A stretch of 64,000 nucleotides of DNA from a virus. The stretch's first letter is position 1, and each line of letters opens with the position of its first letter. Below the pieces are notes generated by a model that saw nothing but the letters and a program-made list of their open reading frames with translations, was not told where the DNA came from and made no database searches. The stretch is from IMG/VR virus record IMGVR_UViG_3300021197_001769; one strand, written 5' to 3'. Of the stretch, positions 26,814 through 57,788 are shown one piece after another. Made by a program: the position numbers and the translations under genes.

Positions 26814-26823
26814 ATTATGCACT

Positions 26824-28669: not shown

Positions 28670-28691
28670 GAGGAGAGATTTCTCTCTCCTC
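28670..28691 (-). promoter_or_regulatory. Perfect 9-bp leader hairpin with GAAA loop
   Basis: Minus strand reads GAGGAGAGA-GAAA-TCTCTCCTC, just downstream of a late promoter; no U-tail. Confidence 0.55.
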
Positions 28692-28702
28692 GTATATTAT
28701 TA

Positions 28703-28710
28703 TATTTATA
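28703..28710 (-). promoter_or_regulatory. T4-type late promoter TATAAATA
   Basis: Exact match overlapping the stop codon of 28706..30298. Confidence 0.7.
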
Positions 28711-30298: not shown

Positions 30299-30333
30299 TT
30301 TCCTCTCCCTCTTGAAGTTCTAGGCGGACAAAA

Positions 30334-33034: not shown

Positions 33035-33042
33035 TATAAATA
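33035..33042 (+). promoter_or_regulatory. T4-type late promoter TATAAATA driving the desaturase/oxygenase operon
   Basis: Exact match ending 4 nt before the ATG at 33047. Confidence 0.75.
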
Positions 33043-33046: not shown

Positions 33047-33769
33047 ATGAGCAATACTACTAAGTTACTAATAAATCATATGTTTTGTCACTTAATGATT
33101 ATACCAGGAGCCATTTATGGTCAATGGTGGATGTTTCTTGCTGCGTTAGCATGGTGGTACGTTGTCGCTATCGTATCTATATCTGGCGGTTATCATAGAT
33201 TTTATTCTCATAGTTCATTTGAAGGTAATAAGTTCTTTGAAGTATGTGTAAATATATTAGGTATCTTTTCAGGAGCAGGTCCTGCATTAACATGGGCTGC
33301 TACTCATAGACAGCATCATGCTTATTCAGATACAGATTTAGATCCTCATAGTCATATTAAAAAAGGCAAGTGGTCTGTTTATGTAAATACTTGGGGGTAT
33401 GATTTTCAAATTAAAAGAAGATTTATAAAAAAGTATCTTAGAAATCCTATACTAGTACATTTTTATAAAAACTATTTTATGTACAATCTTTTTATTATGG
33501 TAGCATTCTTTTTAGTAGATCCTTTATTGTTAGTTTTCGGATATTGTATGCCAGTTGTTTTTGCATTTCATGGTTATGGGTTGCTTAATGTATTAGGGCA
33601 TTCGAATGGTAAACCTACTAACAGTTGGTTTGCTAATCTTCTTACTGCTGGTGAAGGCTGGCATGAAGAGCATCATAAGAAAGCTGCACATTATAGGATT
33701 GGACGAGAAAAAGGTCAATGGGACCCTACTGCGTGGTTTATAGAATATGTTATGGGCAAAAAAGTATAA
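33047..33769 (+). CDS. Membrane fatty acid desaturase, delta-9-like
   Basis: His boxes HRFYSH, HRQHH..SD...DPH and GEGWHEEHH; TM helices. Confidence 0.9.
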   Translation: MSNTTKLLINHMFCHLMIIPGAIYGQWWMFLAALAWWYVVAIVSISGGYHRFYSHSSFEGNKFFEVCVNILGIFSGAGPALTWAATHRQHHAYSDTDLDPHSHIKKGKWSVYVNTWGYDFQIKRRFIKKYLRNPILVHFYKNYFMYNLFIMVAFFLVDPLLLVFGYCMPVVFAFHGYGLLNVLGHSNGKPTNSWFANLLTAGEGWHEEHHKKAAHYRIGREKGQWDPTAWFIEYVMGKKV

Positions 33770-34355
33770 GTTACTTTCATTAAAAAATTACGAAGATCAA
33801 TTTCTATATTACATTAATAGGTTTAGTAAAGAGCTAACTAGACATGATGATATAAAATGGTTTGATACTAGTACTAATTGGTGTCTTCAAAAGACATATA
33901 AAAATTATCTAGATTGGTCTTTTGTAGTTACAGATGATGATGAAGAAGAGTTGATAGCATTTGCTGCAGTACAAGACTTTGGTAATGATGTTGCTAGAAT
34001 ATTGACTAGATTATATTACAATCCAAAATACAGAAGAAAAAATATTAGATATGAATCTAATGAATTAACTCCTGGTAATGTAATTGCTAAACATCAAGTA
34101 GATAATTTCAATAATAAAAACCATTTATTTTTTTCTGTAGAATATATTTACAGAAGACCTACTATAATAAAATTAGGAAAGAAGTTAAATAAATTTTATG
34201 GTCATGAATGGAACACACAACCAGGTTTATACAAAACTTATAATAAAGATGAAAAAGGAGCTTGGCAATCTGTGATAGCTTACAGTTTTGTAAAAGAAAA
34301 ATTTCCTTTAGATCATATGACTTTATTAGATTGGAAAGACAAATATGGCGGATAA
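33747..34355 (+). CDS. Putative GNAT-fold acyltransferase
   Basis: LIAFAAVQ...ARILTRLYYNPKYRRK resembles GNAT motif A. Confidence 0.5.
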   Translation: MLWAKKYKLLSLKNYEDQFLYYINRFSKELTRHDDIKWFDTSTNWCLQKTYKNYLDWSFVVTDDDEEELIAFAAVQDFGNDVARILTRLYYNPKYRRKNIRYESNELTPGNVIAKHQVDNFNNKNHLFFSVEYIYRRPTIIKLGKKLNKFYGHEWNTQPGLYKTYNKDEKGAWQSVIAYSFVKEKFPLDHMTLLDWKDKYGG

Positions 34356-35019
34356 AGAATACAAGCAATATGGTTTTAGTAATGCTAGAATAAGAGCAAA
34401 AGGTGATAGAGGACCTACTAGACACAAACTTACTTCGTTTAAACATATTACCAAAGCACCTGAAAATGTAATGGACGAGATTAAACGTATTATAACTGAG
34501 ATTAAAGAAGATGATTTAGGTACAGATAAGTATCAGATATCTAATAGCTATGATCTTAAAAATAGTTTTAATGCTACTGGTGGTTATAGACAAATACTAT
34601 TACAGAGAAATACTATACAAGGTTCTGATATAAACGAAGAAACTAATTACAATGACTGGCGTAATGATACTGATGTAAGTGTAATTAAAAACTGGTTAGA
34701 AGAAACATTTGGTGAAGTTTTTAGAGCTAGAATATCTGTAATGCCTCCAGGGCATGAATTGTTCTGGCATATTGATACTGATACTTCTGTATTATGTAGG
34801 ATGCAACTAGCAGTTGATACAGTAGGTTCAGAGTTTCAGTTTAGAAATAGAATAGAAGGTTATAGGGCTCTTACTATGGAAGACGGACATGCTTATTTTG
34901 TAAATACAGGATGGTCTCATAGAGTTGTTAATAATGATAAGTGGAGAGTAGTTCTTATATTTGGTATTGAGTATAAGAATATACCTGATAAGGAGGCGTT
35001 ATGGATAGGAAACCATTAA
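34345..35019 (+). CDS. Aspartyl/asparaginyl beta-hydroxylase-like oxygenase
   Basis: RARISVMPPG...WHID...AYFVNTGWSHRVVN...R. Confidence 0.8.
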   Translation: MADKEYKQYGFSNARIRAKGDRGPTRHKLTSFKHITKAPENVMDEIKRIITEIKEDDLGTDKYQISNSYDLKNSFNATGGYRQILLQRNTIQGSDINEETNYNDWRNDTDVSVIKNWLEETFGEVFRARISVMPPGHELFWHIDTDTSVLCRMQLAVDTVGSEFQFRNRIEGYRALTMEDGHAYFVNTGWSHRVVNNDKWRVVLIFGIEYKNIPDKEALWIGNH

Positions 35020-35864
35020 AGAACATTGGGTACGAATATGATATAGATTTTAATTCTATGTCTGATGAAGATATAAAATATTTTGGAAGACAAATAGTAA
35101 AAGATAATGTCATACTAGTACGTAATCAAACTATTAATGAAGAAAGACTTTTATATATTTTAGAACAAATAGGTAATGTACTTAAACCTAATCAGTTTTT
35201 TATGCATCCAGATTATCCAGGATTGTTTAGAGTTACTAACGAAAGAAAAGAAGGCGAAAAGATTGGTATATTCGCTGACAAAGAACTAGATTGGCATAGT
35301 AATGGTAATGGAAGAAAGAGTGGCACTGAAGCATGTGTTATGCTATACTGTCTAAAACCAGGTGAAAATTCTGTAACATCTTTCTGTGATACTAGACAAG
35401 CATATAATGATCTATCAAAAGAAGATAGACATTATTACGATAATATAGATTGTAATTTCAAGTTTGAGAATAATACCTTTTATAAATTAGAAGAAGATGA
35501 TAAAGAACTAGCTATGTTTCAAGGAGGTGCTAGAGCGTTTAAGTATGGTGTAACTAAACCATTAGTATATACTCACCCTTATACAAAAGAAAAAGGTTTG
35601 TATTTTACTTTTCATTATATTAGAGATATGTGGAAAAGAATAGAAGATGGTGATGAAGATCATGAACTTGTAAATATGGAAGAGCATATGGTCAAGTTAA
35701 AGAAACATGTATTTCAAGATAAATATATGTACCATCACGACGATTGGAGACCAGGTGATCTAATATTCATGGATCAGTTTCATAGTATACATAAGCGAAA
35801 TGCTGTCGAAGGTGATAGGTTTTTATATAGAGCTAGTTTTGGGTACGAGAATTGTCAACTGTAG
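35001..35864 (+). CDS. TauD/TfdA-family 2OG-Fe(II) dioxygenase with an HxN variant
   Basis: VILVRNQ, WHSN, TSFCD..AY..L, PLVYTHPYT, WRPGDLIFMDQ...HKR, RFLYR. Confidence 0.85.
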   Translation: MDRKPLKNIGYEYDIDFNSMSDEDIKYFGRQIVKDNVILVRNQTINEERLLYILEQIGNVLKPNQFFMHPDYPGLFRVTNERKEGEKIGIFADKELDWHSNGNGRKSGTEACVMLYCLKPGENSVTSFCDTRQAYNDLSKEDRHYYDNIDCNFKFENNTFYKLEEDDKELAMFQGGARAFKYGVTKPLVYTHPYTKEKGLYFTFHYIRDMWKRIEDGDEDHELVNMEEHMVKLKKHVFQDKYMYHHDDWRPGDLIFMDQFHSIHKRNAVEGDRFLYRASFGYENCQL

Positions 35865-36499
35865 AACCATTACAAAAAATACAATTAGGTAAAGTAACTC
35901 TCTGGGAAAGAAAAGACCCTGATATTAATAATGATATGAAAAGAGAAGACTTAGTTACTGAATGTAAATTCGATTGGTTAGATATTGAAGCTCTTAAATT
36001 AGAATTCGATCAAACTGAGATGAAACCTTTTGAGCATCCTCTCAAAGAGAAATGTAAAGCTGAAAATAGCTGGTTTGAATATACACCTAATTGGCATACA
36101 TATAAATTTACAAATGATATGTCTCAGTATACAGATACAAATCCTGAAACTGTTAAGTGTACTATGATACTTAGATATATTTTAGATAACAAAAGAGTAG
36201 TACCAAAATATTTTAAACAAATAGCAGGCAGTGACTTACCTTGGCATTCTGATCCTTTAGGTTCATGTGCGATAAATGTAGCTTTAGAAGACGATACAGC
36301 TAACTTAGAATACTTAGGAAACATGGCTGGTGATCCTGATGTTCACTTTAACTATAGAATAGGATTACTTAATACAGTTCCAAGACATAGAGTGCAGCCC
36401 TTTCATCAAGATAGAAGAACTGCTAAGTTCCAAGTATTTGATATGGACTATAATATAGTTAGAGAAAAGTTAATAGAGAACAATGCAGTTTTATCTTAA
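35852..36499 (+). CDS. 2OG-Fe(II) cupin oxygenase-like protein
   Basis: LPWHSD...AINV...LLNTVPRHRV....R. Confidence 0.65.
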   Translation: MSTVEPLQKIQLGKVTLWERKDPDINNDMKREDLVTECKFDWLDIEALKLEFDQTEMKPFEHPLKEKCKAENSWFEYTPNWHTYKFTNDMSQYTDTNPETVKCTMILRYILDNKRVVPKYFKQIAGSDLPWHSDPLGSCAINVALEDDTANLEYLGNMAGDPDVHFNYRIGLLNTVPRHRVQPFHQDRRTAKFQVFDMDYNIVREKLIENNAVLS

Positions 36500-37523
36500 A
36501 GACATACCCGAAGACGAAATAATACATTATTATATTAAAAAGCATTCAGGCTTTTATGATGCTATTCGTAAGTTTGATAAGTATGATTATTCTAAACCTT
36601 GTATAAAAGAACTTGATAATAAAGTTATAGATAATTTATGGACTGCTTGTAAAGAAGCATATGCTGAATATGGTTGGTATGGTTTTTTTAAAGGTAATAT
36701 TATAGAAGGTAATCAAGAAAGAGCTAAGAACTATGGTGGGTTATCTTTAACTTATAATCCTAACCATTGGCAAGCTGATAACTTACCTGTTAATGCTCAA
36801 ACTTTAGGTGAGGTAAGGTACAACTTAGGTACTCTTTTCGAAGATGAAAGAGGTAAAAAGATATGGGATGATCTAGTCCATGCAAATAAAAGAACTACAT
36901 TTTATGAGATAATAGGCAAGTATACTTTAGATGCAGGTTTATTATATCTAAAAGAAGAAGGTTTTGTCAATCAATTAGAATATAAAGAACTTTGTAAAAG
37001 ACATTTTGATCATAAGAACAACCCTATAGCAGCTAAGCAACAAGGTCGCAACACTTACAGTGATACATTCGCTTACTGTAAAAGAACTCCCGCGTCTATG
37101 CACGGCTATCTAGGTACATTTATAGACTCTACACCATTTTCTATAGTTCGTAGTAGAATGGTTACATTAAAATATCCAGGTTATGTTCATTGGCATGATG
37201 ATGAAAACATCTTTATTAACACTAGAATTAATATTCCTATCAATGCAGATATAAAATGCAAGTTACATATTAATACAGAAGAAAATACTTTCCATAATGA
37301 TCCAGGTTATATGTATTGTTGGAATACAGAGAATCCTCATAAGGTAAGTATAAGCGAAGGTACAGGACAAAGAACTGCTATAGTATTAGGATTAGCTCCT
37401 TGGTTTGAATTCAACGAAGAAGAGCAATGTTGGTTTACTAACGAGTACTTTGGTAAGGTACATCCATTTGAATTATTTGAAGAAGGCGTTTTCTTAGATG
37501 AAAAATCTTATACCATTAGTTAA
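36483..37523 (+). CDS. Asp/Asn beta-hydroxylase-like oxygenase with N-terminal extension
   Basis: RSRMV...WHDDE...RINIPI...YCWNTENPHKV....R..IVLG. Confidence 0.7.
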   Translation: MQFYLKDIPEDEIIHYYIKKHSGFYDAIRKFDKYDYSKPCIKELDNKVIDNLWTACKEAYAEYGWYGFFKGNIIEGNQERAKNYGGLSLTYNPNHWQADNLPVNAQTLGEVRYNLGTLFEDERGKKIWDDLVHANKRTTFYEIIGKYTLDAGLLYLKEEGFVNQLEYKELCKRHFDHKNNPIAAKQQGRNTYSDTFAYCKRTPASMHGYLGTFIDSTPFSIVRSRMVTLKYPGYVHWHDDENIFINTRINIPINADIKCKLHINTEENTFHNDPGYMYCWNTENPHKVSISEGTGQRTAIVLGLAPWFEFNEEEQCWFTNEYFGKVHPFELFEEGVFLDEKSYTIS

Positions 37524-37986
37524 ATTTTTAAGTGATAAAGATATAGATACATTATTAAATTATTCTAAAACTGCTAAGTGGAAAGAACATTATAGTACAA
37601 AGACAGGTGTTAAAACACCTTTAGAGTTCACTCCAGTCACACAAGAAGTTTTAGATATATTAGAAGATAGTCCTATAGATAATTTAAAGAAAAATAAAAA
37701 TATAAAGATGATGTTAAGTAGATTACAACCTGATAGTATACAGGATTGGCATACAGATGGCAAGCAAAATAAAAGATCTAGTGTTGTTATTCATCCGTTA
37801 ACTAAAAATTATGCTCCTTTATATACTAGAAATAATATGAGTGATGGTCCTGTAATTTTAAATACTTTAGAAGAACATAAAATAGTTAATAACGATAATT
37901 TAAGAATTAACTTTCAGATATGTTACGACGAAGATATTGAAGAGGTAAAAAGTAAATGGATAGGTTATCAAAAATCTATGATGTAG
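37498..37986 (+). CDS. 2OG-Fe(II) cupin oxygenase-like protein
   Basis: DWHTD...VIHPL...ILNTLEEHKIVN...RINFQ. Confidence 0.65.
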   Translation: MKNLIPLVKFLSDKDIDTLLNYSKTAKWKEHYSTKTGVKTPLEFTPVTQEVLDILEDSPIDNLKKNKNIKMMLSRLQPDSIQDWHTDGKQNKRSSVVIHPLTKNYAPLYTRNNMSDGPVILNTLEEHKIVNNDNLRINFQICYDEDIEEVKSKWIGYQKSMM

Positions 37987-38423
37987 AAAGAATAAAAGCT
38001 GAATTACATCAAGTAGTAACTCAACATGGTTGGTTTGAAGGTAATCAAATTAGTTTACAATCTCCTACAGACGATTGGCATTATGGCTGCGGTTGGGTAG
38101 CTGATAAACCTGATAGTTATTTCAATGCTATTAATACAGATGATAGTTGGGAAATAACAAGATTCATAAAAGATTATAACTTAGTTAGAACTAGAGTTAT
38201 GTTAATGCACCCTAAGACTTGTTATACGTATCATAAAGATAGAACACCTAGAGTTCATTTAGCTGTAAATACTCATGAACATTGTTTTCATGTAACTGGT
38301 GATAAAGCAGAACATGTACCTGCTAATGGTCATGCATATAGGTTAGATACTACTGTAGGACATACAGCTATGAATTGTACTAAAAATGTTAAACGTATTC
38401 ACTTGGTTGGTTGCCAAGAGTAG
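37956..38423 (+). CDS. Asp/Asn beta-hydroxylase-like oxygenase
   Basis: RTRVMLMHPKTCYTYHKD..RVHL...DTTVGHTAMN...RIHLV. Confidence 0.75.
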   Translation: MDRLSKIYDVERIKAELHQVVTQHGWFEGNQISLQSPTDDWHYGCGWVADKPDSYFNAINTDDSWEITRFIKDYNLVRTRVMLMHPKTCYTYHKDRTPRVHLAVNTHEHCFHVTGDKAEHVPANGHAYRLDTTVGHTAMNCTKNVKRIHLVGCQE

Positions 38424-38968
38424 TGTACTAATTTTACTTCACCGTCTTGAATAAATGTGTCTTGTACCGCTCGTTGAACCCAGGCTTCTGAAACTGTGAT
38501 AACTTTGAGGCGACGTCTTGCTGAGTCTTCGACAAAGTATTGTTCTCCGTTGACGGGTCCAACTGTCGTCTTATTTCTAATATATTTTGTCGAATAATAC
38601 TCAGGTTTAGATCTGTATTTTTCGACGATGTATTTGCAGTCTCTAGGGTAGTATTTATAGAAACCACCATTGATTTTATATCTTTCATTGTGTGTATCTC
38701 TCCACCAGGCTGGTATACTTAAAAATTCTCCTCTATTGATAGGGTAATTAAATAACTCCATATAATCATTATGTAATTCAATATCAACATCTATTACGCA
38801 TATAGGTTCGTTTATGTCTAATTCCATAAACCTTAATTTATTCCATTGCAGAATAAAAGGATGTTCTTCTTTATTTAGAAATTCAATGCTTGGTAATTTA
38901 TTTTTTAAATAGGTTTCATATTCAGGACCGTACTTGGTACCTACCCTAACTGCATATACTTTGACCAT
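38399..38968 (-). CDS. Glycosyltransferase-like protein (GT-A, DxD)
   Basis: VRVGTKYGPEY, WNKL, IDVDI, INGG, GEQYFV. Confidence 0.65.
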   Translation of the reverse strand: MVKVYAVRVGTKYGPEYETYLKNKLPSIEFLNKEEHPFILQWNKLRFMELDINEPICVIDVDIELHNDYMELFNYPINRGEFLSIPAWWRDTHNERYKINGGFYKYYPRDCKYIVEKYRSKPEYYSTKYIRNKTTVGPVNGEQYFVEDSARRRLKVITVSEAWVQRAVQDTFIQDGEVKLVHYSWQPTK

Positions 38969-39504
38969 GGACCATCCTCTAACATTTTTTCGCCAGCTTG
39001 ATTAAAAATTATAACAGGCCACTTTTCATCAAAACCATGCCAGTTGTAACTTGTACAGACAGGATCATAAGTTTCATACACCATATCTAATTCGTAAATA
39101 TATTGATCTATGCCTTTATAATTTAACATATAATAATCTGAGTTAGCTGCAAATGTGTTATAATAAAAACTATAGTCACCTTTCCAAGACATTATAGATG
39201 AATTTAATGGAGTATGATGAGCAGTTCTCCACCAAGCATGTAGTAAAGTAAAGTTATCTCTTACCAAGTGTTCGACATTATCTTTTATACAAACATCTAA
39301 ATCGAAATATAAGTAAGGACCGTTTTTAAAGTCTCTAAATAATTGAAGTTTATTCCACACGCCATCATATTGCTCATCTCTTATTATGTGTATTTTATCA
39401 TACCTAGTACCAGTATTAGATAACATATAAACTATATTATCAACATATTTTTCTGAATATTTGTTTCCAGTATTAACTAATAATATGTCTAGTAAGGTTC
39501 CCAA
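38941..39504 (-). CDS. Glycosyltransferase-like protein (GT-A, GT8-like)
   Basis: GNKYSEKYV, WNKLQLF, YFDLDV, LNSSIMSW, GIDQYI. Confidence 0.75.
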   Translation of the reverse strand: MGTLLDILLVNTGNKYSEKYVDNIVYMLSNTGTRYDKIHIIRDEQYDGVWNKLQLFRDFKNGPYLYFDLDVCIKDNVEHLVRDNFTLLHAWWRTAHHTPLNSSIMSWKGDYSFYYNTFAANSDYYMLNYKGIDQYIYELDMVYETYDPVCTSYNWHGFDEKWPVIIFNQAGEKMLEDGPWSKYMQLG

Positions 39505-39824
39505 TTATCCGTCTCATCATCATGCCACCCCATTGCTAATTTTACATCATCGCTTACTCTTGACATATCAAATGGAGGATCAAAAGTAGTAATAACTTCA
39601 CAATCTTTTACACCAGGAGAGTTAATTACTGCTTTCTTTATTTCTTTTATTATCCAATCGGCTGCAGGACAAAAAGCAGAAGTTAATGTATGTGTTAGAG
39701 TCACAAAGGGTAATTTTTCTAAATTGATATCGTATATTAAACCTAAGTCATATATGTTAATAGATATTTCAGGGTCGTAAACTTCTTTTAGTCTACTTAT
39801 TATTTGTTCTTTAATTACTTCCAT
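39489..39824 (-). CDS. Fe-S maturation factor, DUF59/SufT/PaaD family
   Basis: LKEVYDPEISINIYDLGLIYDI...TLTSAFCPAA...FDPP. Confidence 0.9.
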   Translation of the reverse strand: MEVIKEQIISRLKEVYDPEISINIYDLGLIYDINLEKLPFVTLTHTLTSAFCPAADWIIKEIKKAVINSPGVKDCEVITTFDPPFDMSRVSDDVKLAMGWHDDETDNWEPY

Positions 39825-40441
39825 TTTCCTACCACTATAAATCTTCTATAATCTTCGAACCATATTCTATCACCATGTAGCATATGAATATCATTATCTT
39901 TAGCTAACTGAACAGCACTCTCTTTACAATTAATATGATCTGGTTCATCTACTTTATCATTACTAGTAATCATAAGTAGAGTTCTTTCTGGTGCTATGAA
40001 TACTTTTTTCATATTACCAAAGTCGTCCATATGCTCACAACTAGTATTAATAATTATATGAGCTCTTCTTTCGTTTGTATCTTCAAACCAATCTTGATTG
40101 AATATATTAATTTCAAAAGCTGGTTTAAATATATCTATATACTTTCTTAGTACAGTGCAAGCGAAATCATCTAATTCATAAAAATTAATTTTTCTTATTG
40201 GTATATCTAAAAACTTAACTAACATACCTATAAGAGGCCAACCAAACCAGCCTCCTACTATCTCTATAGTTACTTCACCATTCTCATCTGTAGGTATAAC
40301 TATATTTTTATCTTTAAGACCATAAAATAATTGTTGTTTAGATTTCTGTTGATTCTCAGATACTGATTGAACGAATCTATCTATCTTATCCGGATGATTA
40401 TAATAGAACCACTTAAGCATATTAGCGTATTCAATTTGCAT
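39815..40441 (-). CDS. Class I SAM-dependent methyltransferase-like protein
   Basis: IVGGWFG motif I, YELD, IINTSCEHM, DHINC, RFIVVG. Confidence 0.7.
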   Translation of the reverse strand: MQIEYANMLKWFYYNHPDKIDRFVQSVSENQQKSKQQLFYGLKDKNIVIPTDENGEVTIEIVGGWFGWPLIGMLVKFLDIPIRKINFYELDDFACTVLRKYIDIFKPAFEINIFNQDWFEDTNERRAHIIINTSCEHMDDFGNMKKVFIAPERTLLMITSNDKVDEPDHINCKESAVQLAKDNDIHMLHGDRIWFEDYRRFIVVGKWK

Positions 40442-40847
40442 TACTACCCTTTACTATGTACCACTTATCTATATTATAGTTAAAATCTACTTTAGTTATT
40501 TCGTTATCGAGAATAATTTGATCACAACTAGTTGTAGGGTTACAATCGCCATTATGCTGATCGTTATCTCCTATAACAATCATATCACCTTTATATACTT
40601 TACCTATAGGATAGTGCTTTTCAGTATTAAAATCAACTACTAATTCGTTAAAGGTTATATTATCGAATATAGCATCTCTTGGATTCTCAAACTTAGGATC
40701 ATAATCTACAACGTCTAGATCTATTCCTAATCCTTTGACTTCTCTTATTAATCGTGGTCTCTCATTACTAGCTATAAAAGTTACTGATTCATAACCTCCA
40801 TCTATAATAGCATTTAGTAATAACTTTTCCACATCTCTTCTGCCCAT
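40431..40847 (-). CDS. Hypothetical protein, possibly a reduced methyltransferase-fold paralog
   Basis: DYDP, VVDFNTEKH, GDCNP and WYIVKG loosely parallel the motifs of 39815..40441. Confidence 0.45.
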   Translation of the reverse strand: MGRRDVEKLLLNAIIDGGYESVTFIASNERPRLIREVKGLGIDLDVVDYDPKFENPRDAIFDNITFNELVVDFNTEKHYPIGKVYKGDMIVIGDNDQHNGDCNPTTSCDQIILDNEITKVDFNYNIDKWYIVKGSNAN

Positions 40848-43327: not shown

Positions 43328-43328
43328 A

Positions 43329-45614: not shown

Positions 45615-46773
45615 ATTTAAATTCCTCCACTAGGTTGTATAATGACTCGTCTCTAGATTTATCTAGAGTGTCGGTATAGTTTTTAAATTTAGGAAGTAGA
45701 TGAGACCAATCTTCTTTATACATGTAGTCCGCGATGCTATCTTTCTTTCTAATAACTATATCATAATTTTTTTCTAAGTACAAAGCAGCTCTATCTTTGA
45801 GCTCTTCTGGTAATACTCTTATATTTAACTGTTCGGGATGGTTAAGTATATTCAAGTAAACAGGTATACCTAAAGGATTAAGATAATCAAACAGTTCATG
45901 CAATCTAAGAATATTATAAATTTGAACAGTACAATGAACTTCTAATCTAACATTTTTCATATTTCTAAAACGTTTTAGATTCTCATCTATCTTCTTCCAT
46001 GAACTAGGATATCTAATATACCTATCTAATTCACCAAACGCATCAACTGAAGCATTAAGTTTTACTTGCTTAAAGTGTTTCCAGTAGTCAACTAACTTAT
46101 CAGGTATGTTAGTTAAATTAGTATTATACTTTAATTTTATATTATGTGCAAGTCCTTTTTCAATTAAACTATCATATAGTTGATATTGTTGTTTAATTAA
46201 TGTAGGCTCACCCCCTGTAAGATATATTTCTTCTATATCTAATCTATGCTTATCTATTTGGTCCCATAAGAAAGGTTCATCTGGCCAAGTCATATTCTTT
46301 AGATACTTAAGTCTATCTTCAGGTAGCTTTTTATCTTCATCTGCTATTAGATTCCATTCTTTAGTCCACATACTTGACGCGTAAGGGTTACACATTCTAC
46401 ATTTCAGGTTACATAAATTACCTAATCTTAAATCTAAATATTTTACTTTAATAGGTGGTTTAGTACTCTTTTTAAAGTCAAACATATATCTATTATTAGC
46501 AGACTGTCTAGCTGATTCTACACCAGCTTGTTCTTCTCTGTAACATCTTTTACATATTCTAGATTTTTTCCCTCTTAGCATTTTATCTCTAAGATTAATC
46601 ATATATTCAGAGTACCACATTTCTTCAATAGTATCTTCTACTACATTGTAATGTGTACCATCAGGTTTAGTTATAGTAGTACCTTGAGCAATATTACAAC
46701 AAGGTCTATATTTACCTGTTGAAGTTGTAGCAATATGCATCCACGGTAATATACAGAACGATTTATTCTTCAT
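45604..46773 (-). CDS. Radical SAM protein with N-terminal Twitch/SPASM-like domain
   Basis: CILPW...PCC...CKRC, then CNLKCRMC and TGGEP. Confidence 0.92.
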   Translation of the reverse strand: MKNKSFCILPWMHIATTSTGKYRPCCNIAQGTTITKPDGTHYNVVEDTIEEMWYSEYMINLRDKMLRGKKSRICKRCYREEQAGVESARQSANNRYMFDFKKSTKPPIKVKYLDLRLGNLCNLKCRMCNPYASSMWTKEWNLIADEDKKLPEDRLKYLKNMTWPDEPFLWDQIDKHRLDIEEIYLTGGEPTLIKQQYQLYDSLIEKGLAHNIKLKYNTNLTNIPDKLVDYWKHFKQVKLNASVDAFGELDRYIRYPSSWKKIDENLKRFRNMKNVRLEVHCTVQIYNILRLHELFDYLNPLGIPVYLNILNHPEQLNIRVLPEELKDRAALYLEKNYDIVIRKKDSIADYMYKEDWSHLLPKFKNYTDTLDKSRDESLYNLVEEFKYVS

Positions 46774-47464
46774 AGACAAGCCTTTGTTTTCTTAGTTTAA
46801 GTGCAGTAGCAATAAAGTTAAACTTTTTACCTTTTACAAATTTACCTAGATCTCTTTTTCTATCTAGCTCTTTAAATATATCTTCTGTTAGTTTACATTT
46901 AACTAACTTTATGTTATTCTTTAACTCTGAATTAGTAAATCTAATATACATTAAAGGATCACCTCTTTCTACTTTAAGTATATCATTAGTTCTATTAAAC
47001 TGAAAGCCCCAAGATACATTTCTAACCCAACTGTGTATATTGAAACTACCTCCTATGATTTGACCGGGGTACGAGTGGTTAAACGGGGGCATTATATCCA
47101 TTAGAGTAGGTTGATCAGCTATAAACAAATATTTGAAAGCCATTTGAAAGAAAGGTTTGTCTCTATCATGCATATCATTAGATGAATGATAACTAACTAT
47201 TCTATTCATTTCATGATCATCTACTTGATTTGATTCTACTTTTACTTCACCTTTACTACTAGTAGCAGTAAATTGTATAGGAGATTTTATTACGTAAGTA
47301 TTAGAAAAAAAGTTTTGATAAGAAGGACAATGCATATAACCTTGCTTATTATAACCTCTCCAAGCATTATAATTATCTACATATCTTTCTGGTGGATAGA
47401 TAATATAATCATGTAGATTATTATCTGGATAACACCAACCTATCTGTTCTTTACTACTTCCCAT
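46763..47464 (-). CDS. Hypothetical protein
   Basis: CP......YVIKSP...PPF...G.FNI.SW.R...GDPLMY; overlaps both neighbours in the operon. Confidence 0.6.
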   Translation of the reverse strand: MGSSKEQIGWCYPDNNLHDYIIYPPERYVDNYNAWRGYNKQGYMHCPSYQNFFSNTYVIKSPIQFTATSSKGEVKVESNQVDDHEMNRIVSYHSSNDMHDRDKPFFQMAFKYLFIADQPTLMDIMPPFNHSYPGQIIGGSFNIHSWVRNVSWGFQFNRTNDILKVERGDPLMYIRFTNSELKNNIKLVKCKLTEDIFKELDRKRDLGKFVKGKKFNFIATALKLRKQRLVYEE

Positions 47465-48510
47465 TGTTCTTCTCCGTTCCTTAATAATGTTATAGCGCTA
47501 TCTCTATTTCCTGCTCCAGTACATTTTCTTGCACATATAGGATTAGGTTTATCTGATTCCCAACTTTCCATTAAACCTGTTAAAAAAGGACTAGTATCAA
47601 AAAATTCTTCTGCAGAAATATTATGTAAGTTATCTAAAGGATCTATTGTTCTATGTTGGAAACCAAAATAGCAACACGGTTGTGCAAATCCATCATGGTT
47701 AACGAATAACCACCCTTTTCTGCCATCTAGTCTTTTTAACGCTTTACAATGAATTTTAGGTTTAGATCCATCATTAAGTGTCTTTTTAGGTTGACCCGGA
47801 GGTGCTTTAACCGAACCAAATGCTTTAGAGTTAATAGGCTTCTTGCCTTTTATTAACTTAGGTACAAAGTTCATTCCTAATTTTTCTGTAGATTTTCTAG
47901 CTGAAGCTATATAAGTAAATCTATGAAAACCCATTTCAACAGCCATCTTATTAGCTTCTTTAACTTGATTATAATTATGGTTAAACATAATAAACTTCCA
48001 TGAAGCTAATCCTCCAGCTGCTATAAATGCTTTAGCGTTTCTCATAAGTTTATTCCAATCAGCTCCTACTCTATAGATATGATTAGTATCTTCTAGACCA
48101 TCAATAGCAAACTCAACATCTAATCTTTTATCACCATTAGGTCTTTTATACTTGTTAGATATCTCCCCTATCCTAGTAAAGAACTTCTCATTTCTAGTAG
48201 CACCATTAGTACTAATTGAAATTCTTGTACTAGGAAATTCTTCTATTAAGTATTCAATAATTTTATCTGCTTCAGGATGTATTAATGGTTCGTCAATCTG
48301 ACCTGAAAAACTAATTATTGCAAGCTTTGGTAAAGTTTCAATAGTAAACCATTTCTTAATATCTTCTAAATGCATATAATTAGTATTAAGGAATGGAAGA
48401 GCAGCTGGATTAGCTAGTCTTTCGCATCCAGGGCAAGCTAAATTACAATAAGAAGTTAACTCTAATTGTAGTTTTTCAGTTTCTTTTGCTCCTATTGGCC
48501 ACTTAAGCAT
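47440..48510 (-). CDS. Radical SAM/SPASM-like protein
   Basis: CNLACPGC, STNG, FAIDGLEDTNHIYR, PCC, CARKC; paralog of 43329..44351. Confidence 0.92.
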   Translation of the reverse strand: MLKWPIGAKETEKLQLELTSYCNLACPGCERLANPAALPFLNTNYMHLEDIKKWFTIETLPKLAIISFSGQIDEPLIHPEADKIIEYLIEEFPSTRISISTNGATRNEKFFTRIGEISNKYKRPNGDKRLDVEFAIDGLEDTNHIYRVGADWNKLMRNAKAFIAAGGLASWKFIMFNHNYNQVKEANKMAVEMGFHRFTYIASARKSTEKLGMNFVPKLIKGKKPINSKAFGSVKAPPGQPKKTLNDGSKPKIHCKALKRLDGRKGWLFVNHDGFAQPCCYFGFQHRTIDPLDNLHNISAEEFFDTSPFLTGLMESWESDKPNPICARKCTGAGNRDSAITLLRNGEEQWEVVKNR

Positions 48511-49801
48511 TTTTTAAAACCTCATATTCATCTTTTAGTTCTTTCCAATACTTTATACAAGAAGGATTCTGTTTTCTAATCTCGCACATAGTTTCAATAT
48601 ATTCAATAAACTTTATAAATTTAGGTATTCTTTCCTCTTCGTCCCATACAGTTAACATCTTATTAAAATTTTTAACTGCATTATGGTGACTTCTTCTAAA
48701 TATCTCTCTAGCTTCATCAATATACCATCTAGGTAAAACTCTATAATCTAGATAAGTAGGATTAACAACTAATGTAGGTATACTTCCTACACCGCCATTT
48801 TTATAATTCTTATCTGTCTTTTCTATAAAGTTAAAAATATTATCAATGTCTAATAAGTTACAAGCCATAGCAGTTACAGACCAATTAATTCTTAACTGAG
48901 GTTCAATTATTGTTCTATTATCTTTTAGAGGTTCTATTTTTTCTTTTAACCAACAATCGTGTTTATTTTTTTTCATTTCATGAAAGGTATCTATATACCA
49001 ATTTACATTATCACTTATAGTTTTAGTAGTAGCAGTTTTATGTCCTCTAATAAGATTATACAACTCTCCTGTACCTTCAATACTTATTATAAGTCTTATT
49101 CTATGAAAGTTAGACCACATAGTAAGAAGCTTTTTATCTCTATAAGTCATATTTGTAATATATTTTAACGTTATATTTTTTGATACTCCATGATTAATAA
49201 ACACATCTAATAGATCATATCTTTCATCTTGATATAAAGGTTCTCCACCTTTAACTTCTATCATTCTAACGTTTTGTGTAAGACTAGGAAACTCTAATAG
49301 ATCAGATATAGTGTTATGTTTAACTCTAATCATACCTGGTCTAGATTCTCTATTGAACTTATTATTTTCAATCTTGACTAATTTTTCTTCTTCTTTTAAC
49401 CAACCAGTTGAACTATGAACTCCACAATGTAAACATTTCAAATTACATTTATTACTTAGATCTAAATCCATCATAAGTATTTTAGGTTTAGTCATTTCAT
49501 CAGTAATATAAGGTTCTAAGTTTCTTCTATAATCATCTGCTCTAGTTTTACCTGCTTGACCTCTTAACTTACATACATTACAATTAGAAGGATACTTACC
49601 TTCATTAATATCTTTTCTTAACCAATCCCAACTTCTAAATTTATTTCTAATATTATTACCTACATTAGTATCTAAATTTTTATCCCAAGCATCATGATCA
49701 CCTTTCATATTGTATACACAACAAGGTACCACTTGACCCGTAGAGTCAACGTTCACAGAAGTAAAAGGAGCTACGCAAGGTTTATCTAGCAACGAACGCA
49801 T
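48503..49801 (-). CDS. Radical SAM protein with N-terminal Twitch/SPASM-like domain
   Basis: CVAPF...PCC...CNVC, CNLKCLHC, GGEP; start moved to MRSLLDK at 49801. Confidence 0.9.
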   Translation of the reverse strand: MRSLLDKPCVAPFTSVNVDSTGQVVPCCVYNMKGDHDAWDKNLDTNVGNNIRNKFRSWDWLRKDINEGKYPSNCNVCKLRGQAGKTRADDYRRNLEPYITDEMTKPKILMMDLDLSNKCNLKCLHCGVHSSTGWLKEEEKLVKIENNKFNRESRPGMIRVKHNTISDLLEFPSLTQNVRMIEVKGGEPLYQDERYDLLDVFINHGVSKNITLKYITNMTYRDKKLLTMWSNFHRIRLIISIEGTGELYNLIRGHKTATTKTISDNVNWYIDTFHEMKKNKHDCWLKEKIEPLKDNRTIIEPQLRINWSVTAMACNLLDIDNIFNFIEKTDKNYKNGGVGSIPTLVVNPTYLDYRVLPRWYIDEAREIFRRSHHNAVKNFNKMLTVWDEEERIPKFIKFIEYIETMCEIRKQNPSCIKYWKELKDEYEVLKNA

Positions 49802-51020
49802 CCATTTCTTCTGCCATATCAGGTAACAGATCTCTCCAAGATATATCAACTTGTTGTTTAACATCTAAGGTATCTGAAAATTCTATAAACTTAGGAATAA
49901 GTTCAGTCATGTCTCCATCTAATGTATTAATAGCATCCATAAAATGAGGATTATTTGCAAACTTAGAAGTTCTTAATTTATTTTTTATTTGTTGTTTAAA
50001 CTTAGGAGGTATAACTCTACAATCTAAGAACGTAGGATAATTGACTCTATGAGTGTGTAATTCTATACCCATATCTTCAAAGTCTTTAGCTATCTCTGGC
50101 ATAAACCATATGTTGTAAACTTGTAAAGTCAATGCACCAGCTATCTTATAAAGTTTAGGATGATCAATTACCTTTAAAATGTTTTCTTGTACTACTTTAT
50201 AATCACCTAACTGTCTAATATAATTATAGATATCCCCTGTACCGTCAATACTAATATTAATATGAACTCTTTTAAAACTATTCCACATTTCTAAGACATT
50301 GTCTTTCTTATAATTTAACTTAGTCATATTAGTAGCATATCTTAATGATACTTTATCTGCTTCTCCGTACTCCATAATATAATGTAAGACTTTATAATGT
50401 AAAGGATCAGTTAGAGGCTCACCTCCTGCAAAATATATCTCTCTAAAGTATGGACATAATGCTTTAAACTCATCCCAGAACTCTTCAGTGTGCCATTTAC
50501 TAACATAAGGTTTTCTTTCTATGTTAAACTGCTCTACTTTTTCATAAGTACTCTTATTATGCTTTTGCATTAATCCTTTTATTGCACCCCAGTCTTGAGC
50601 CCAAGAAGTACTATCTACTGGATGACACATTCTACACTTTAAGTTACAAAGATTAGATAACTTAGCTTCAAAGGTAGGTATCTTGAAAGGCATAAAACCA
50701 TCTTCATCCATCTCTTCCCATACAGGTCCGAAAGTCTTAATATGATTCTTTACTGTCCTTTGTCTCATAGATCTTATACCTTGATCTTCATGCTTCCAAC
50801 AAGCATTACACTCAGGAGACTTTATACCAGATAATAATTCTTTTCTAATAGCTCTCATTCTTGGGTTGTTCCAAGCTTCTTCTAAGCTCTCGTCTTGTAT
50901 ATTACTAGTTGGTCTAGCTCTACAACAAGGTTTTATTTCACCTGCGGTTTTTGTAGCTATATGTACAAAAGGAAATGTACAAAAAACGTCGTCATTTACT
51001 GTTGCTCTTTTAAAGTTCAT
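49782..51020 (-). CDS. Radical SAM protein with N-terminal Twitch/SPASM-like domain
   Basis: CTFPF...PCC...CNAC, CNLKCRMC, AGGEP, SIDG. Confidence 0.92.
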   Translation of the reverse strand: MNFKRATVNDDVFCTFPFVHIATKTAGEIKPCCRARPTSNIQDESLEEAWNNPRMRAIRKELLSGIKSPECNACWKHEDQGIRSMRQRTVKNHIKTFGPVWEEMDEDGFMPFKIPTFEAKLSNLCNLKCRMCHPVDSTSWAQDWGAIKGLMQKHNKSTYEKVEQFNIERKPYVSKWHTEEFWDEFKALCPYFREIYFAGGEPLTDPLHYKVLHYIMEYGEADKVSLRYATNMTKLNYKKDNVLEMWNSFKRVHINISIDGTGDIYNYIRQLGDYKVVQENILKVIDHPKLYKIAGALTLQVYNIWFMPEIAKDFEDMGIELHTHRVNYPTFLDCRVIPPKFKQQIKNKLRTSKFANNPHFMDAINTLDGDMTELIPKFIEFSDTLDVKQQVDISWRDLLPDMAEEMDAFVAR

Positions 51021-52083
51021 GTCCTACCCTTACTAGATCCCCGTATATAAGATCTTTTACTTTTGTTGTATTAAGATCAGCAGCGCATGCGCACCAATTT
51101 CTTATACAAGGTTCTGGTTTACTAATCATAGTAAACTCTTTAAAAATGTTCCCTAGTTTTTTAGTTCTACAAGTAGCATTCCATACATCACCGCTAGGTT
51201 CTATTCTTAGACTTTGTATACCAGCCCAACAATACCAACCTAGATATTGATTATTTTTAGCTACTGTAAACTCATTTACGTTAGTCTCTCTATTACTTAC
51301 TTCATAGTTATCGTTTACTTCATGTGCAATAACATTTTTAAAATCTGATACTGGAATATTTTTAAGATAGTTTAGTTCTTCATCAGTATAATAGCCTTTA
51401 TCGCCGCTATAATCTGGTCTACCATCTGAACCAGTTAAATTTATTGACGCTATTTGTTTATCATTATCAAAAGGTAATCTCATTTCTTTATTATCTTCTC
51501 TATAAGCAGGTCTTATTCTTCTTATTGAAACTGCTATACCTTTTTTTCTAAACTCATCTATTTGCTTAGCTGCTTTATCAAATACTGTAGGTAGCATCAT
51601 CATGTGAACATGTAAGTGTTGAAGGTTACCTGCTTCATGAACTGCATAGACACTATCAGGTATCTTTTCAACGTCATGATATTCCATATGATAAGAAAAT
51701 ATCATAGAGTTCACATACTGTGATAACTCTACATAATACTTTGTAGTTCTAGAACCATTAGTAGTAATACTAAACTGATTAATTCTATCACCGTATTTTT
51801 CTTTACCATATTTACAAAAGTCAAATAAGTGTTTACATATAGTAGGTTCACCACCAGTAAAAGAAAGTCTAATCTTTTTATCAGTAGTATTCATTATCTT
51901 ATCTAATGTAGCTTTCATTGTATCTAAGTCAGGGAAACCTGAACTATGATCATGCGTATGCTTATCACAATAAGAACAGTGAAAGTTACATCTCTTAGAA
52001 ATGAACCATTCTATCTTTACTAAATTATCTGAATTTTTATTGTTATGCTCTACAGCTACTTTTTTAGATAACATTTTAGCCAA
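51010..52083 (-). CDS. Radical SAM protein with C-terminal auxiliary-cluster domain
   Basis: CNFHCSYC, TGGEPT, TTNG, C.AG...TC...C...CAC; paralog of 41527..42582. Confidence 0.92.
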   Translation of the reverse strand: MAKMLSKKVAVEHNNKNSDNLVKIEWFISKRCNFHCSYCDKHTHDHSSGFPDLDTMKATLDKIMNTTDKKIRLSFTGGEPTICKHLFDFCKYGKEKYGDRINQFSITTNGSRTTKYYVELSQYVNSMIFSYHMEYHDVEKIPDSVYAVHEAGNLQHLHVHMMMLPTVFDKAAKQIDEFRKKGIAVSIRRIRPAYREDNKEMRLPFDNDKQIASINLTGSDGRPDYSGDKGYYTDEELNYLKNIPVSDFKNVIAHEVNDNYEVSNRETNVNEFTVAKNNQYLGWYCWAGIQSLRIEPSGDVWNATCRTKKLGNIFKEFTMISKPEPCIRNWCACAADLNTTKVKDLIYGDLVRVGHEL

Positions 52084-53477
52084 TCCATATCTGGGTATAT
52101 TTTATCAAAATCTTGACCTCTAGTTTCTGCTACAGTATAACACCACTCAGCAGTCTCAGGTAATCTTTCTGACCAATCTTCAGCATCCATAAAGTTTAAA
52201 AGACCTTCTAATCTTTTAATACCATATTCACTATTACGCCATTGTTCATAAGATACATTGTGCTCTTTAACACCTGTACATTTTTGCCAATTTTGTTCTA
52301 GCCAAGGATACAAATCTTGTTCCCATTTAAGTCTGACTTCTTCTTTAAAAAAAGTAGGTAAAGCTTTAACGTTCAACTGAGGGGGCCAATAAGCTAAGTG
52401 ACAACTAAATATACCTGCACCAGAAGGCCACTGATTAAGTAGTTTAAACTCACTGTTTATTTTCCACTTAATAAATTCTGGTACGTAAAAATAATTAATT
52501 GCCATTCCTGTAAAAGCAGTAGTAAGCATTAAATTACCATGAGGGTAATTATCTAATACATGCATCTGCTTTTCTAAATGTTTAAACTCTGCAGGGTATC
52601 TAACAAAGTTTAATCTGTCTTCAATATCATCTATACTAAAATGATATATTACTTTCTTGAAATGTTTCCATAAATCGAATAGATCATCTCTCCATTCTAA
52701 ACCATTAGAGTTATATCTTACTTCCATTTGAGAAGCATAACCTTCTCTTATACATTTTTCTAATAGTTCATAATGCTCATCATGTATTAGAGGTTCACCA
52801 CCTGCCCAATACAATTGTTTAATATGAGGTATTTGAGTATATAATTCTGGAAAAAAATCTTTATTCTTTTTATGCCAGTTATATGAACCACCGGACCAAG
52901 CTAACTTACCTGACTCTTTTTCCCAAGCCATAGTACTTTTAAGTTTTTTGTTTTTTAAATTAGACCATATTTTTTTATGGTCAGGTACCCAGTTAGATGA
53001 ATCATGCGGTGAGCACATAACACATGCTAATTGACATTTAGATCCTAATCTTAAGTCTACGTATCTGACTTGAGCAGGTACTTCACCAGTTTCAGTATCG
53101 TAACCTTGTAGTATAGATTCAATACCTTCATCTCTAATCCACTTATCAGTTTCCCATTGTCTTTTAGATCTATGTCCAGCTTCTTCTTCCTTATAACATT
53201 TAAGACATGATGCTGGTTTTTCACCTCTCATCATAGTCTTTCTAGTTTCTTTCATATAGGTATTATTCCAAGCTTCAAGTAAACCAGTAGTTGCTAGGTT
53301 AGCAGGTTTACCGTCTTCTCTTCTTAATACACCTACTTCTGAAGCTGTTTTATTTGTACTATCTGCATTCTGTACTCCAGATGCATTAGCAGTACAACAG
53401 ACACGCATATGTCCATTAGGTCTAGTACTTACATGCATCCATGGAAGTGCACAAAACGTTTCTGAAGGATAAGCCAT
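52056..53477 (-). CDS. Radical SAM protein with N-terminal Twitch/SPASM-like domain
   Basis: CALPW...VCC...CLKC, CQLACVMC, AGGEP. Confidence 0.92.
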   Translation of the reverse strand: MAYPSETFCALPWMHVSTRPNGHMRVCCTANASGVQNADSTNKTASEVGVLRREDGKPANLATTGLLEAWNNTYMKETRKTMMRGEKPASCLKCYKEEEAGHRSKRQWETDKWIRDEGIESILQGYDTETGEVPAQVRYVDLRLGSKCQLACVMCSPHDSSNWVPDHKKIWSNLKNKKLKSTMAWEKESGKLAWSGGSYNWHKKNKDFFPELYTQIPHIKQLYWAGGEPLIHDEHYELLEKCIREGYASQMEVRYNSNGLEWRDDLFDLWKHFKKVIYHFSIDDIEDRLNFVRYPAEFKHLEKQMHVLDNYPHGNLMLTTAFTGMAINYFYVPEFIKWKINSEFKLLNQWPSGAGIFSCHLAYWPPQLNVKALPTFFKEEVRLKWEQDLYPWLEQNWQKCTGVKEHNVSYEQWRNSEYGIKRLEGLLNFMDAEDWSERLPETAEWCYTVAETRGQDFDKIYPDMDWLKCYLKK

Positions 53478-54040
53478 TAGGCTGTTTCCGGAGGCGTCTC
53501 TTCAGTTTGTTTAGCAGGATTGTCTAAAATAGTTGCTGCGGTCATAGCTACTATTTCCATAAGGTTACCAGCTTTTCTAATCTTAGCTTTAAGTTCTCTA
53601 TTCTTAGAACTCTTTACTTCATCGATTTCGAAAGCTTGTAATTTTAATTTAAAAAGATCATCTTGAGTCAACTCTGTAAGGTTAGTAGCTGCAGGGGCTG
53701 CAGTTTCACCTTGCTTAGACAACTGTTTTCCGATATCACTCATTACCTCTGCGGTAATTTCGTTACGTAACTCGTTGTGCTCGCTGATTAATCTTTCGTG
53801 GAACTTGGTAGTATTTTCTTCAACAACTGTTAAAGGAACTTGCTTAACAAACTCTTCGAAGATTGGATTGGGTCCAACTGACACCGTCCTCAAAAATTTG
53901 CTAACTCTTTCAGGCGCTTGCCCGTCATAGCCTTCTACGTGAAAGTGCTCTTCAACGTTGACGTTGATAGTAGTTTTATCATCGTCAACGAAGTAAGCAG
54001 TTTCCGGCGTATAGACTGTATTCATAATTTCCGTTTTCAT
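53477..54040 (-). CDS. Hypothetical protein heading the radical SAM operon
   Basis: Intact ORF with GGAG RBS; C-terminal LFKLKLQAFE...KAKIRKA helix bundle. Confidence 0.65.
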   Translation of the reverse strand: MKTEIMNTVYTPETAYFVDDDKTTINVNVEEHFHVEGYDGQAPERVSKFLRTVSVGPNPIFEEFVKQVPLTVVEENTTKFHERLISEHNELRNEITAEVMSDIGKQLSKQGETAAPAATNLTELTQDDLFKLKLQAFEIDEVKSSKNRELKAKIRKAGNLMEIVAMTAATILDNPAKQTEETPPETA

Positions 54041-57776: not shown

Positions 57777-57788
57777 ATCTTATTTATT

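Follow-up and report, generated by a model that had tools for sequence, protein, structure and literature searches.

A layered island of tailoring enzymes in the morphogenesis module of a marine T4-like phage and its relation to the DSD motif

The window analysed here is the whole 64,000-nucleotide stretch of IMG/VR virus record IMGVR_UViG_3300021197_001769. Its source is a marine T4-like myovirus, a pelagimyophage-like T4-type phage, and it carries between the structural genes an island of tailoring enzymes (33047-54040, ~21 kb) with 27 genes tiled without gaps in two convergent operons. The original prediction held that this cluster writes a code of Asp-Ser-Asp (DSD) motifs. We found that the radical SAM cassette of the island is mobile and independent of the DSD motif. 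The island as a whole is best explained as a nested mosaic, in which three layers would have gathered at a recombination hot-spot of the morphogenesis module. We give about an even chance to the reading that it encodes a cytoplasmic, late-expressed pathway building and editing a sugar-type decoration. The new elements are the anatomy in layers, a presence/absence series among relatives and a negative outcome for the DSD link.

The radical SAM cassette and the DSD motif

The island proteins were searched with Pfam, NCBIfam and PHROG, and paralogy was examined by phmmer and jackhmmer; genes are called here by their first coordinate. Pfam and NCBIfam identified eight Radical_SAM proteins, which pairwise comparison sorted into type A (45604, 48503, 49782 and 52056), type B (43329 and 47440) and type C (41527 and 51010). 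The family NF033640 (N_Twi_rSAM) has a curated whole-protein cut-off of 170 bits. All type A proteins belong to it (45604, 398.8 bits; 48503, 193.3; 49782, 346.6; 52056, 359.4), and the other four, with 33-60 bits, fall below the cut-off and are non-members. The cassette and its remaining genes are as follows.

41527-53477, - strand: radical SAM cassette, 12 kb, inserted between gene 53477 and the glycosyltransferase (GT) gene 40814
42557, - strand: cassette gene, no family given
44344, - strand: RIO1-like minimal kinase (Pfam E 8e-6)
44883, - strand: QueC-like PP-loop protein (E 9e-6) with an SGGxDS motif and a C-terminal CxxCxxC
46763, - strand: cassette gene, no family given

DSD occurs 97 times in the window versus 7.8 expected from composition. 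None of these copies is in an island protein; all 97 are in tail, neck, sheath and fibre proteins, many of them inside a fibrous repeat RLDSD(S/H)xxxQ that is 18-21 residues long. DSD therefore marks the tail side of the particle. When 9784-11268, 16270-17889 and 17936-18496 were compared with the DSD-bearing stretches 20747-30756 and 55042-59815, the major capsid protein and the tube were seen to have no DSD and the portal one. In the sheath protein (18498-20696; homologues L085:11931-13757, L088:11927-13720 and L101:5235-7337) the DSD sites fall in lineage-specific surface-loop insertions and at positions that hold unrelated residues in the outgroups L158 and Pelagibacter phage HTVC008M; members of the clade partly differ in where DSD stands. 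Such turnover suggests that the motif as such, and not a fixed structural site, is under selection. In its first 160 residues the DSD-rich fibre protein 20747-22609 shares 36-39% identity with tail proteins from jumbo phages of Caulobacter and Brevundimonas, hosts that are alphaproteobacterial. A tblastn search with a DSD-rich fibre protein returned only N-terminal-domain matches in Caulobacter and Brevundimonas phages, which are uninformative on DSD.

Co-occurrence of cassette and motif was tested in 80 viral loci anchored on the terminase large subunit (TerL). Every locus that has structural genes and a TerL at least 66% identical to that of the window is enriched in DSD (observed versus expected: L084, 31 versus 1.9; L087, 42 versus 2.1; L103, 106 versus 5.3), and none with a TerL identity of 57% or less is enriched (HTVC008M, 6 versus 10.6). 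Because the enrichment follows TerL identity, DSD is a clade trait. Six contigs of the clade (G002, G003, G005, G007, G008 and G010; 21-109 kb) do not carry the radical SAM cassette, and for most of them the checked DSD excess is 5- to 12-fold or greater. G003 (109 kb) has 139 DSD versus 12.9 expected, and its one radical SAM gene is unrelated and lies elsewhere; G010 (56 kb) has 104 versus 8.4 and no radical SAM gene, and G005 (51 kb), G007, G008 and G002 have no radical SAM genes. The DSD-richest contig is G002 (124 DSD in 10,155 aa), in which the gp15-side genes abut gp16 with no island between them.

The cassette is likewise found apart from the motif. N_Twi relatives, sought with a 4-sequence profile, are present in at least 425 viral and 154 bacterial stretches. 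In the best 80 of the at least 425 viral loci, with a median of 7 open reading frames (ORFs) per locus that bear the radical SAM motif, DSD was counted 70 times versus 119 expected and no locus is enriched; 80 mostly bacterial loci together with L001 gave 68 versus 77. In L158 (TerL 54%), GT-like, methyltransferase-like and N_Twi genes lie beside DSD-free structural proteins. The radical SAM cassette is independent of the DSD motif: the two part ways in both directions, therefore the whole cluster is not the DSD writer.

The idea that the whole island writes the DSD code has its enzymes act on the DSD-tagged virion proteins, so that the particle itself is the precursor of a pathway like those for RiPPs (ribosomally synthesized peptides with post-translational modifications). 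It accounts for the strong excess of the motif in tail, neck and fibre proteins and its absence from the enzymes, and for an island without a precursor ORF in a late structural operon. Moreover, AspH-type cupins (PF05118) hydroxylate Asp/Asn in other systems. We nevertheless regard it as very improbable and as largely refuted by the co-occurrence test, in view of the six DSD-rich contigs without cassette and of the N_Twi loci, L158 included, without DSD excess. In addition, the + operon of the island is swapped in the relative G004, whose fibres are still DSD-rich, no RRE domain is present, and 50-60% identical orthologues exist in bacteria without such proteins. The claim that the cluster writes the DSD code thus fails for most of the island, the radical SAM cassette included, since these parts are uncorrelated with DSD across the relatives; of the island's enzymes, only a trio of GT-A glycosyltransferases still co-occurs with the DSD clade. 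The motif does not need radical SAM enzymes, and the search for its writer narrows to clade-conserved genes such as the GT trio.

Layers of the island and spread of its cassette

Layer 1 is conserved in the clade and consists of 54065, 53477, the three GT-A genes and a 39815-like gene, in an order that is kept beside the last fibre-like gene. These genes recur in G003 and G010 and partly in G004, and the GT trio is present in 7/7 clade contigs that reach the region, including G003, G004, G005, G007, G008 and G010. Layer 2 is the radical SAM cassette, found within the clade only in the window and in G004 (TerL 85%), with a SufT-like helper adjoining it. Layer 3 is the oxygenase and desaturase operon next to gp16 with its late promoter; in G004 it is swapped for seven unrelated genes, and the corresponding stretch of other relatives encodes SDR, NAD epimerase/dehydratase, AMP-binding, carbamoyltransferase, AurF-like and NMO enzymes. 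The relatives make up a natural series of no island (G002), GT only (G003 and G010), GT plus cassette (window and G004) and another cassette (L095). By this presence/absence series among close relatives, which have virion genes and DSD in common, the layers can be told apart and the genes for co-expression experiments can be chosen. In L095 (TerL 69%), five radical SAM genes (239-9057) lie upstream of gp16 with no detectable similarity to those of the window, which suggests that one hot-spot has taken up radical SAM cassettes more than once, independently. G001, the nearest record to the window, has nothing matching the island, and nucleotide searches of the island and flank against cultured phages gave no match. 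The genes of layer 1 and their neighbours in the - operon are listed below.

38399-38968, - strand: retaining GT-A glycosyltransferase paralogue (paralogy, invariant DxD)
38941-39504, - strand: retaining GT-A glycosyltransferase paralogue (paralogy, invariant DxD)
39489-39824, - strand: SufT/DUF59-like Fe-S assembly protein (Pfam FeS_assembly_P E 3.3e-15)
39815-40441, - strand: class I methyltransferase-like protein (GxG-type and acidic motifs in the alignment; weak spermidine synthase matches)
40431-40847, - strand: 138-aa protein, no Pfam/PHROG family match; homologue in G004 only
40814-41539, - strand: third retaining GT-A glycosyltransferase paralogue (AlphaFold model, pLDDT 71; Foldseek)
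53477-54040, - strand: acidic 187-aa protein, first gene of the island, no Pfam/NCBIfam family match; homologues at the same position in G003, G004 and G010
54065-54997, - strand: border gene, 310 aa, Ser/Thr/Gly/Asn-rich, 0 DSD, no Pfam or PHROG match; homologues in G003 and G010

The three GT-like proteins of the original prediction were upheld. A model of 40814 was built from an 11-sequence alignment with moderate confidence (pLDDT 71), and its top 50 Foldseek matches are all GT-A (TM 0.5-0.6, E ~1e-7). Its structural neighbours are the GT6 enzyme BoGT6a, UGGT, alpha3GalT, LgtC and PBCV-1 A64R (PDB 2p73), an enzyme of capsid glycosylation. The DxD motif (D90xD92) is invariant across the 11 aligned sequences, and the pair 38399/38941 matches phrog_1962, a glycosyltransferase family (E 0.0012). 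The predicted fold thus confirms the trio as retaining GT-A glycosyltransferases of GT6/GT8-like type. The methyltransferase-like call for 39815 stands at lead level: a feature search with an atlas language model points to Methyltransf_31/PCMT clusters, and a family profile against the PDB gave insignificant matches only. The gene is kept with the GT trio and is also present in 26 of the best 80 viral N_Twi loci. In the feature search it falls near clusters that bear the annotation protein-L-isoaspartate O-methyltransferase (score 0.87, a lead only); isoaspartate formation has a known hot-spot in Asp-Ser, and a link of 39815 to DSD by this route is conceivable. The SufT-like protein 39489, which has no counterpart in G004, probably supports cluster loading of the radical SAM enzymes. 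In the border protein 54065 a motif is duplicated internally (RPLKINGTSGLIEMSDAD... and RPVRYNSTNAGFIEMSDAE...), and this protein may be an assembly factor or an acceptor.

The conservation of layer 1 raises the possibility that the GT-A trio with 39815 O-glycosylates the Ser of DSD, as a sequon on tail, neck, sheath and fibre proteins, and that the cassettes only diversify the sugar. The trio is in all seven clade contigs that reach the region and those checked are DSD-rich, its structural neighbours include A64R and UGGT, and the sheath DSD sites turn over between relatives in variable surface loops as sequons would. However, in G002, the contig richest in DSD, the 31 kb across the same junction contain no GT (the contig is 18% complete), and the GT-like homologue in L158 occurs without DSD. 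Co-occurrence could also be plain shared ancestry, and the many copies in the 18-21-residue RLDSD fibrous repeat may be purely structural. We therefore consider DSD glycosylation by the trio rather unlikely; if true, close relatives would wear differing virion glycan coats, through a glycosylation that is phage-encoded and modularly diversifiable.

Outside the clade, the core of the cassette circulates among aquatic and jumbo phages and Bdellovibrionota, to which the bacterial N_Twi relatives overwhelmingly belong. Phages and Bdellovibrionales share 57-66% identity in type C (41527) and ~50% in 52056; the radical SAM cassette is therefore mobile. The best 80 viral loci hold N_Twi in 80/80, type B in 64/80, type C in 55/80 and the QueC-like gene in 27/80. 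Bacterial loci usually have several N_Twi copies, and a 20-kb stretch can hold as many as 12 radical SAM genes; found alongside are AspH-type cupins, GT2 glycosyltransferases, NodU/TobZ-type carbamoyltransferases and HTTM proteins. The last of these, membrane proteins with an HTTM domain (vitamin K carboxylase-like), adjoin N_Twi cassettes at 6 loci of predatory bacteria (L076:3281-4621, L079 and other Bacteriovoracaceae). Conservation across organisms without common virion proteins argues for a common, generic small substrate and not the proteins of the window's phage. N_Twi-based islands of multiple radical SAM genes, from a family that is uncharacterised, thus reach across hundreds of aquatic phage contigs and into predatory bacteria.

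At its own site the island lies, as predicted, between gp15-side structural genes and gp16 in two convergent, overlapping operons. ORF tiling placed 8 genes in the + operon (33047-38423) and 19 in the - operon (54040-38399), with an overlap of 25 nt where they converge. The - operon is an unbroken continuation, with no gap, of the fibre-like genes upstream, which run on after gp14/gp15 up to the island. A perfect T4-type late promoter precedes the first + operon ORF by 5 nt; in the window as a whole the motif is depleted (8 seen versus 15.8 expected) and most copies are directly upstream of genes. We infer from TATAAATA at 33035 and from the continuation of the fibre genes into the - operon that the island is expressed late. 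The island has a G+C content of 0.29-0.32, its flanks one of 0.35-0.36. The window's TerL is ~55% identical to cyanomyophage TerL and 49% to that of HTVC008M. A gp13-like head-tail adaptor gene (15291-16289) adjoins the portal gene, ~40 kb away from gp14/gp15 (57789-59815), and the gp13-gp14-gp15-gp16 order usual in HTVC008M and L158 is disrupted in the window's clade.

30805-32640, - strand: gp17, terminase large subunit (PHROG terminase family, E 4e-68)
32630-33001, - strand: gp16, terminase small subunit (PHROG terminase family, E 2e-20)
33035-33042, + strand: T4-type late promoter, perfect match
57789-58781, - strand: gp15 homologue, tail sheath stabiliser (36% identity to HTVC008M gp075)
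58778-59815, - strand: gp14 homologue (27% identity to HTVC008M gp074)
60717-62570: VrlC-like gene, upstream of the island as are gp14 and gp15

The + operon is essentially an oxygenase operon.

33047-33769, + strand: membrane protein like SCD/DesC-type fatty-acid desaturases (Pfam FA_desaturase E 1.1e-11; two hydrophobic segments)
33747-34355, + strand: protein of unassigned family (Pfam Acetyltransf_7 E 0.075 only; weak phrog_11918 match)
34345-35019, + strand: cupin Fe(II)/2-oxoglutarate (2OG) oxygenase of the AspH/LpxO family (Pfam Asp_Arg_Hydrox E 9.3e-6, above cut-off)
35001-35864, + strand: TauD/TfdA-family Fe(II)/2OG dioxygenase (Pfam TauD E 6.9e-31)
35852-36499, + strand: cupin-related gene (joins the AspH-like family by jackhmmer)
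36483-37523, + strand: cupin-related gene (joins the AspH-like family by jackhmmer)
37498-37986, + strand: cupin-related gene (phmmer match to 34345, 2.4e-4)
37956-38423, + strand: cupin-related gene (Pfam Asp_Arg_Hydrox E 4e-4)

Five of its eight genes (34345, 35852, 36483, 37498 and 37956) are thus cupin-related genes of the AspH/LpxO family. The desaturase 33047 has three His boxes (HRFYSH, HRQHH and HEEHH) and homologues in most clade relatives, and the closest solved relative of the TauD protein 35001 is ScoE (E 1.8e-7). For 33747 a GNAT assignment was rejected, with Acetyltransf_7 at an E value of only 0.075.

Enzyme content and the possible substrate

The enzyme inventory given by the original prediction proved largely accurate. 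Eight radical SAM enzymes, five to six cupin/AspH-like oxygenases, TauD, SufT, the kinase-like and QueC-like proteins and the desaturase were all recovered by Pfam/NCBIfam and phmmer/jackhmmer; the GNAT-like call was not sustained. We also agree that the cluster holds no precursor ORF, exporter or DNA-modification transferase. Every ORF of at least 25 aa falls within a larger island gene, therefore no free intergenic space is left for a precursor ORF, and this tiling yielded no RiPP precursor gene in the island. Among the 27 island proteins, no RRE/PqqD-like domain, leader protease or exporter was matched in Pfam, NCBIfam or PHROG, and Pfam and NCBIfam found no DpdA/TGT, no hydroxymethylase (hmdU/hmdC-forming) and no DNA glycosyl or aminoacyl transferase. 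The island has no flippase, polymerase or initiating phosphoglycosyl transferase, and hydrophobic or transmembrane segments occur in the desaturase only.

The type A radical SAM proteins carry a Cys-rich twitch/SPASM-like domain that is permuted to the N-terminus, ahead of the CX3CX2C core: Pfam SPASM matches residues 9-95 of an N_Twi protein and Radical_SAM residues 119-292. C9, C27, C28, C76, C79 and C123/C127/C130 are invariant in 45 N_Twi sequences. The N_Twi model (pLDDT 93.6) has generic fold neighbours with TM <=0.41 (CteB, SkfB, SuiB, BlsE, DesII, viperin and MoaA). BlsE has the best TM, 0.41/0.48; to the sugar and nucleoside tailoring enzymes among these neighbours the likeness is at fold level, with 13-18% identity. 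The fold matches are compatible with peptide and sugar substrates alike. Neither the N_Twi nor the type C proteins have a solved relative by sequence; the latter show weak viperin/MoaA-like matches. A literature search on NF033640 found no paper and no characterised member.

We propose that the GT trio would assemble a short glycan from nucleotide sugars, and that the methyltransferase, the kinase, the PP-loop amidating enzyme, the hydroxylases and the twitch-type radical SAM enzymes would then rewrite its sugars by epimerisation, deoxygenation, C-C or C-methyl chemistry, hydroxylation, amidation and phosphorylation. The acceptor would most likely be the phage's own fibre, neck or sheath proteins, because of the operon context, the late promoter, the soluble enzymes and the lack of export machinery. 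Next in line would be the host envelope, as lipopolysaccharide (LPS) analogues exist for the GT8, LpxO and Kdo-kinase-like families. We count in favour of a sugar or small-molecule substrate the single-cluster twitch domain, the lack of an RRE/PqqD-like domain, the GT2, carbamoyltransferase and AspH partners in bacteria, the SDR, NAD epimerase/dehydratase, AMP-binding, carbamoyltransferase and AurF genes of the relatives and the TauD protein, which is nearest to ScoE. The prediction had named the virion proteins, or a glycan or acyl group on them, as the substrate of a RiPP-like pathway. Decoration of the virion remains a live option, since three true GTs are present and the operon appears to be late; the part with a RiPP-like precursor fails.

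Several points weigh against a sugar-type decoration. Both the sugar substrate and its acceptor are things that we infer, and no gene for nucleotide-sugar synthesis (nucleotidyltransferase or 4,6-dehydratase) was found in the window's island. The fold matches of N_Twi are generic and include the peptide maturases CteB, SkfB and SuiB, and proteins are possible substrates of AspH/JmjC-type cupins and of RIO-type kinases. The neighbourhood of fibre genes may merely be a permissive insertion site, and the desaturase may be an unrelated lipid auxiliary gene.

The enzymes could instead remodel the LPS core, lipid A or membrane lipids of a SAR11-type host from the cytoplasmic face of the envelope, for example to mask receptors against superinfection or to keep progeny from being trapped on debris. 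We see this as possible but on the unlikely side. GT8/LgtC-like GT-A enzymes, LpxO/OlsC-type Asp_Arg_Hydrox proteins, a Kdo/WaaP-clan kinase and an SCD-type desaturase all have LPS or lipid analogues, and modification of the host O-chain was proposed for pelagimyophage GTs (PMC7029224). However, late expression in a lytic phage fits poorly with envelope remodelling, as do the missing flippase, polymerase and initiating phosphoglycosyl transferase, the restriction of membrane anchors to the desaturase and the occurrence of the same cassette in phages of very different hosts.

That the island makes a free secondary metabolite or RiPP during infection, from a precursor or scaffold encoded elsewhere, seems to us highly unlikely. 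It would explain why the island consists of tailoring enzymes only, and the TauD protein is nearest to the isonitrile synthase ScoE, AMP-binding, AurF and NMO enzymes occur in the islands of relatives, and a conserved 73-aa ORF lies beside cassettes in L002, L042 and L061. Against it, no precursor, RRE, scaffold synthase, protease or exporter is encoded in the island, and the 73-aa ORF is not in the window and is too conserved for a RiPP core. This conserved protein of 71-73 aa (L002:114-335, L042:5123-5338 and L061:6467-6688; 59-76% identical) adjoins a methyltransferase-like gene in multi-radical-SAM cassettes of a Crocinitomicaceae-binned contig, a Neisseriaceae metagenome-assembled genome and a Rickettsiales-binned contig, and was rejected as a RiPP precursor on these two grounds.

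Hypermodification of DNA or nucleotides is hardly credible. The QueC-like PP-loop enzyme and the weak viperin/MoaA-like matches of type C would be in keeping with it, but a DpdA/TGT, a hydroxymethylase and a DNA glycosyl/aminoacyl transferase are all missing from the island, and the homologous bacterial loci carry GT2 and carbamoyltransferase genes.

Comparison with known systems

Radical SAM/SPASM clusters for RiPPs (sactipeptides, PQQ, proteusins) likewise combine multiple radical SAM enzymes that bear auxiliary Fe-S domains with Fe/2OG hydroxylases. The island differs from them in that it has no precursor, RRE/PqqD, protease or exporter, and its single twitch domain is permuted to the N-terminus. 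The twitch-type radical SAM enzymes BtrN, DesII, BlsE and MoaA, which tailor sugars and nucleosides, have a single auxiliary cluster and small-molecule substrates, but their domain order differs from that of N_Twi, and the permuted N_Twi architecture has no solved counterpart. Four island proteins have the N-terminal Cys-rich domain of the NF033640 family; the island differs in combining these 4 paralogues with two other radical SAM subtypes.

Mycobacteriophage GTs are reported to glycosylate virions (Freeman et al. 2023, cited in PMC12801897). The island resembles such virion-glycosylating systems, mycobacteriophage GTs and A64R alike, in encoding soluble GT-A glycosyltransferases beside structural genes. 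The mycobacteriophage and PBCV-1 systems have no radical SAM or oxygenase tailoring set.

HTVC008M carries arrays of 2OG oxygenases next to gp13 and also between gp16 and gp17, but it lacks the window's island proteins and is not enriched in DSD. For pelagimyophages, Zaragoza-Solas et al. (2020, PMC7029224) noted hypervariable islands that contain GTs and "radical SAM cassettes", without an anatomy of these cassettes. That island lies between VrlC and gp14, whereas the window's lies between the gp15-side fibre-like genes (54065) and gp16. In other respects the window's island matches the host recognition cluster of pelagimyophages and cyanomyophages: it is a large, non-syntenic island in the structural module beside fibre genes, it is hypervariable, with content that differs among the window, G004, G003, G010, L095 and G002, and it brings together fibres, GTs and cassettes.

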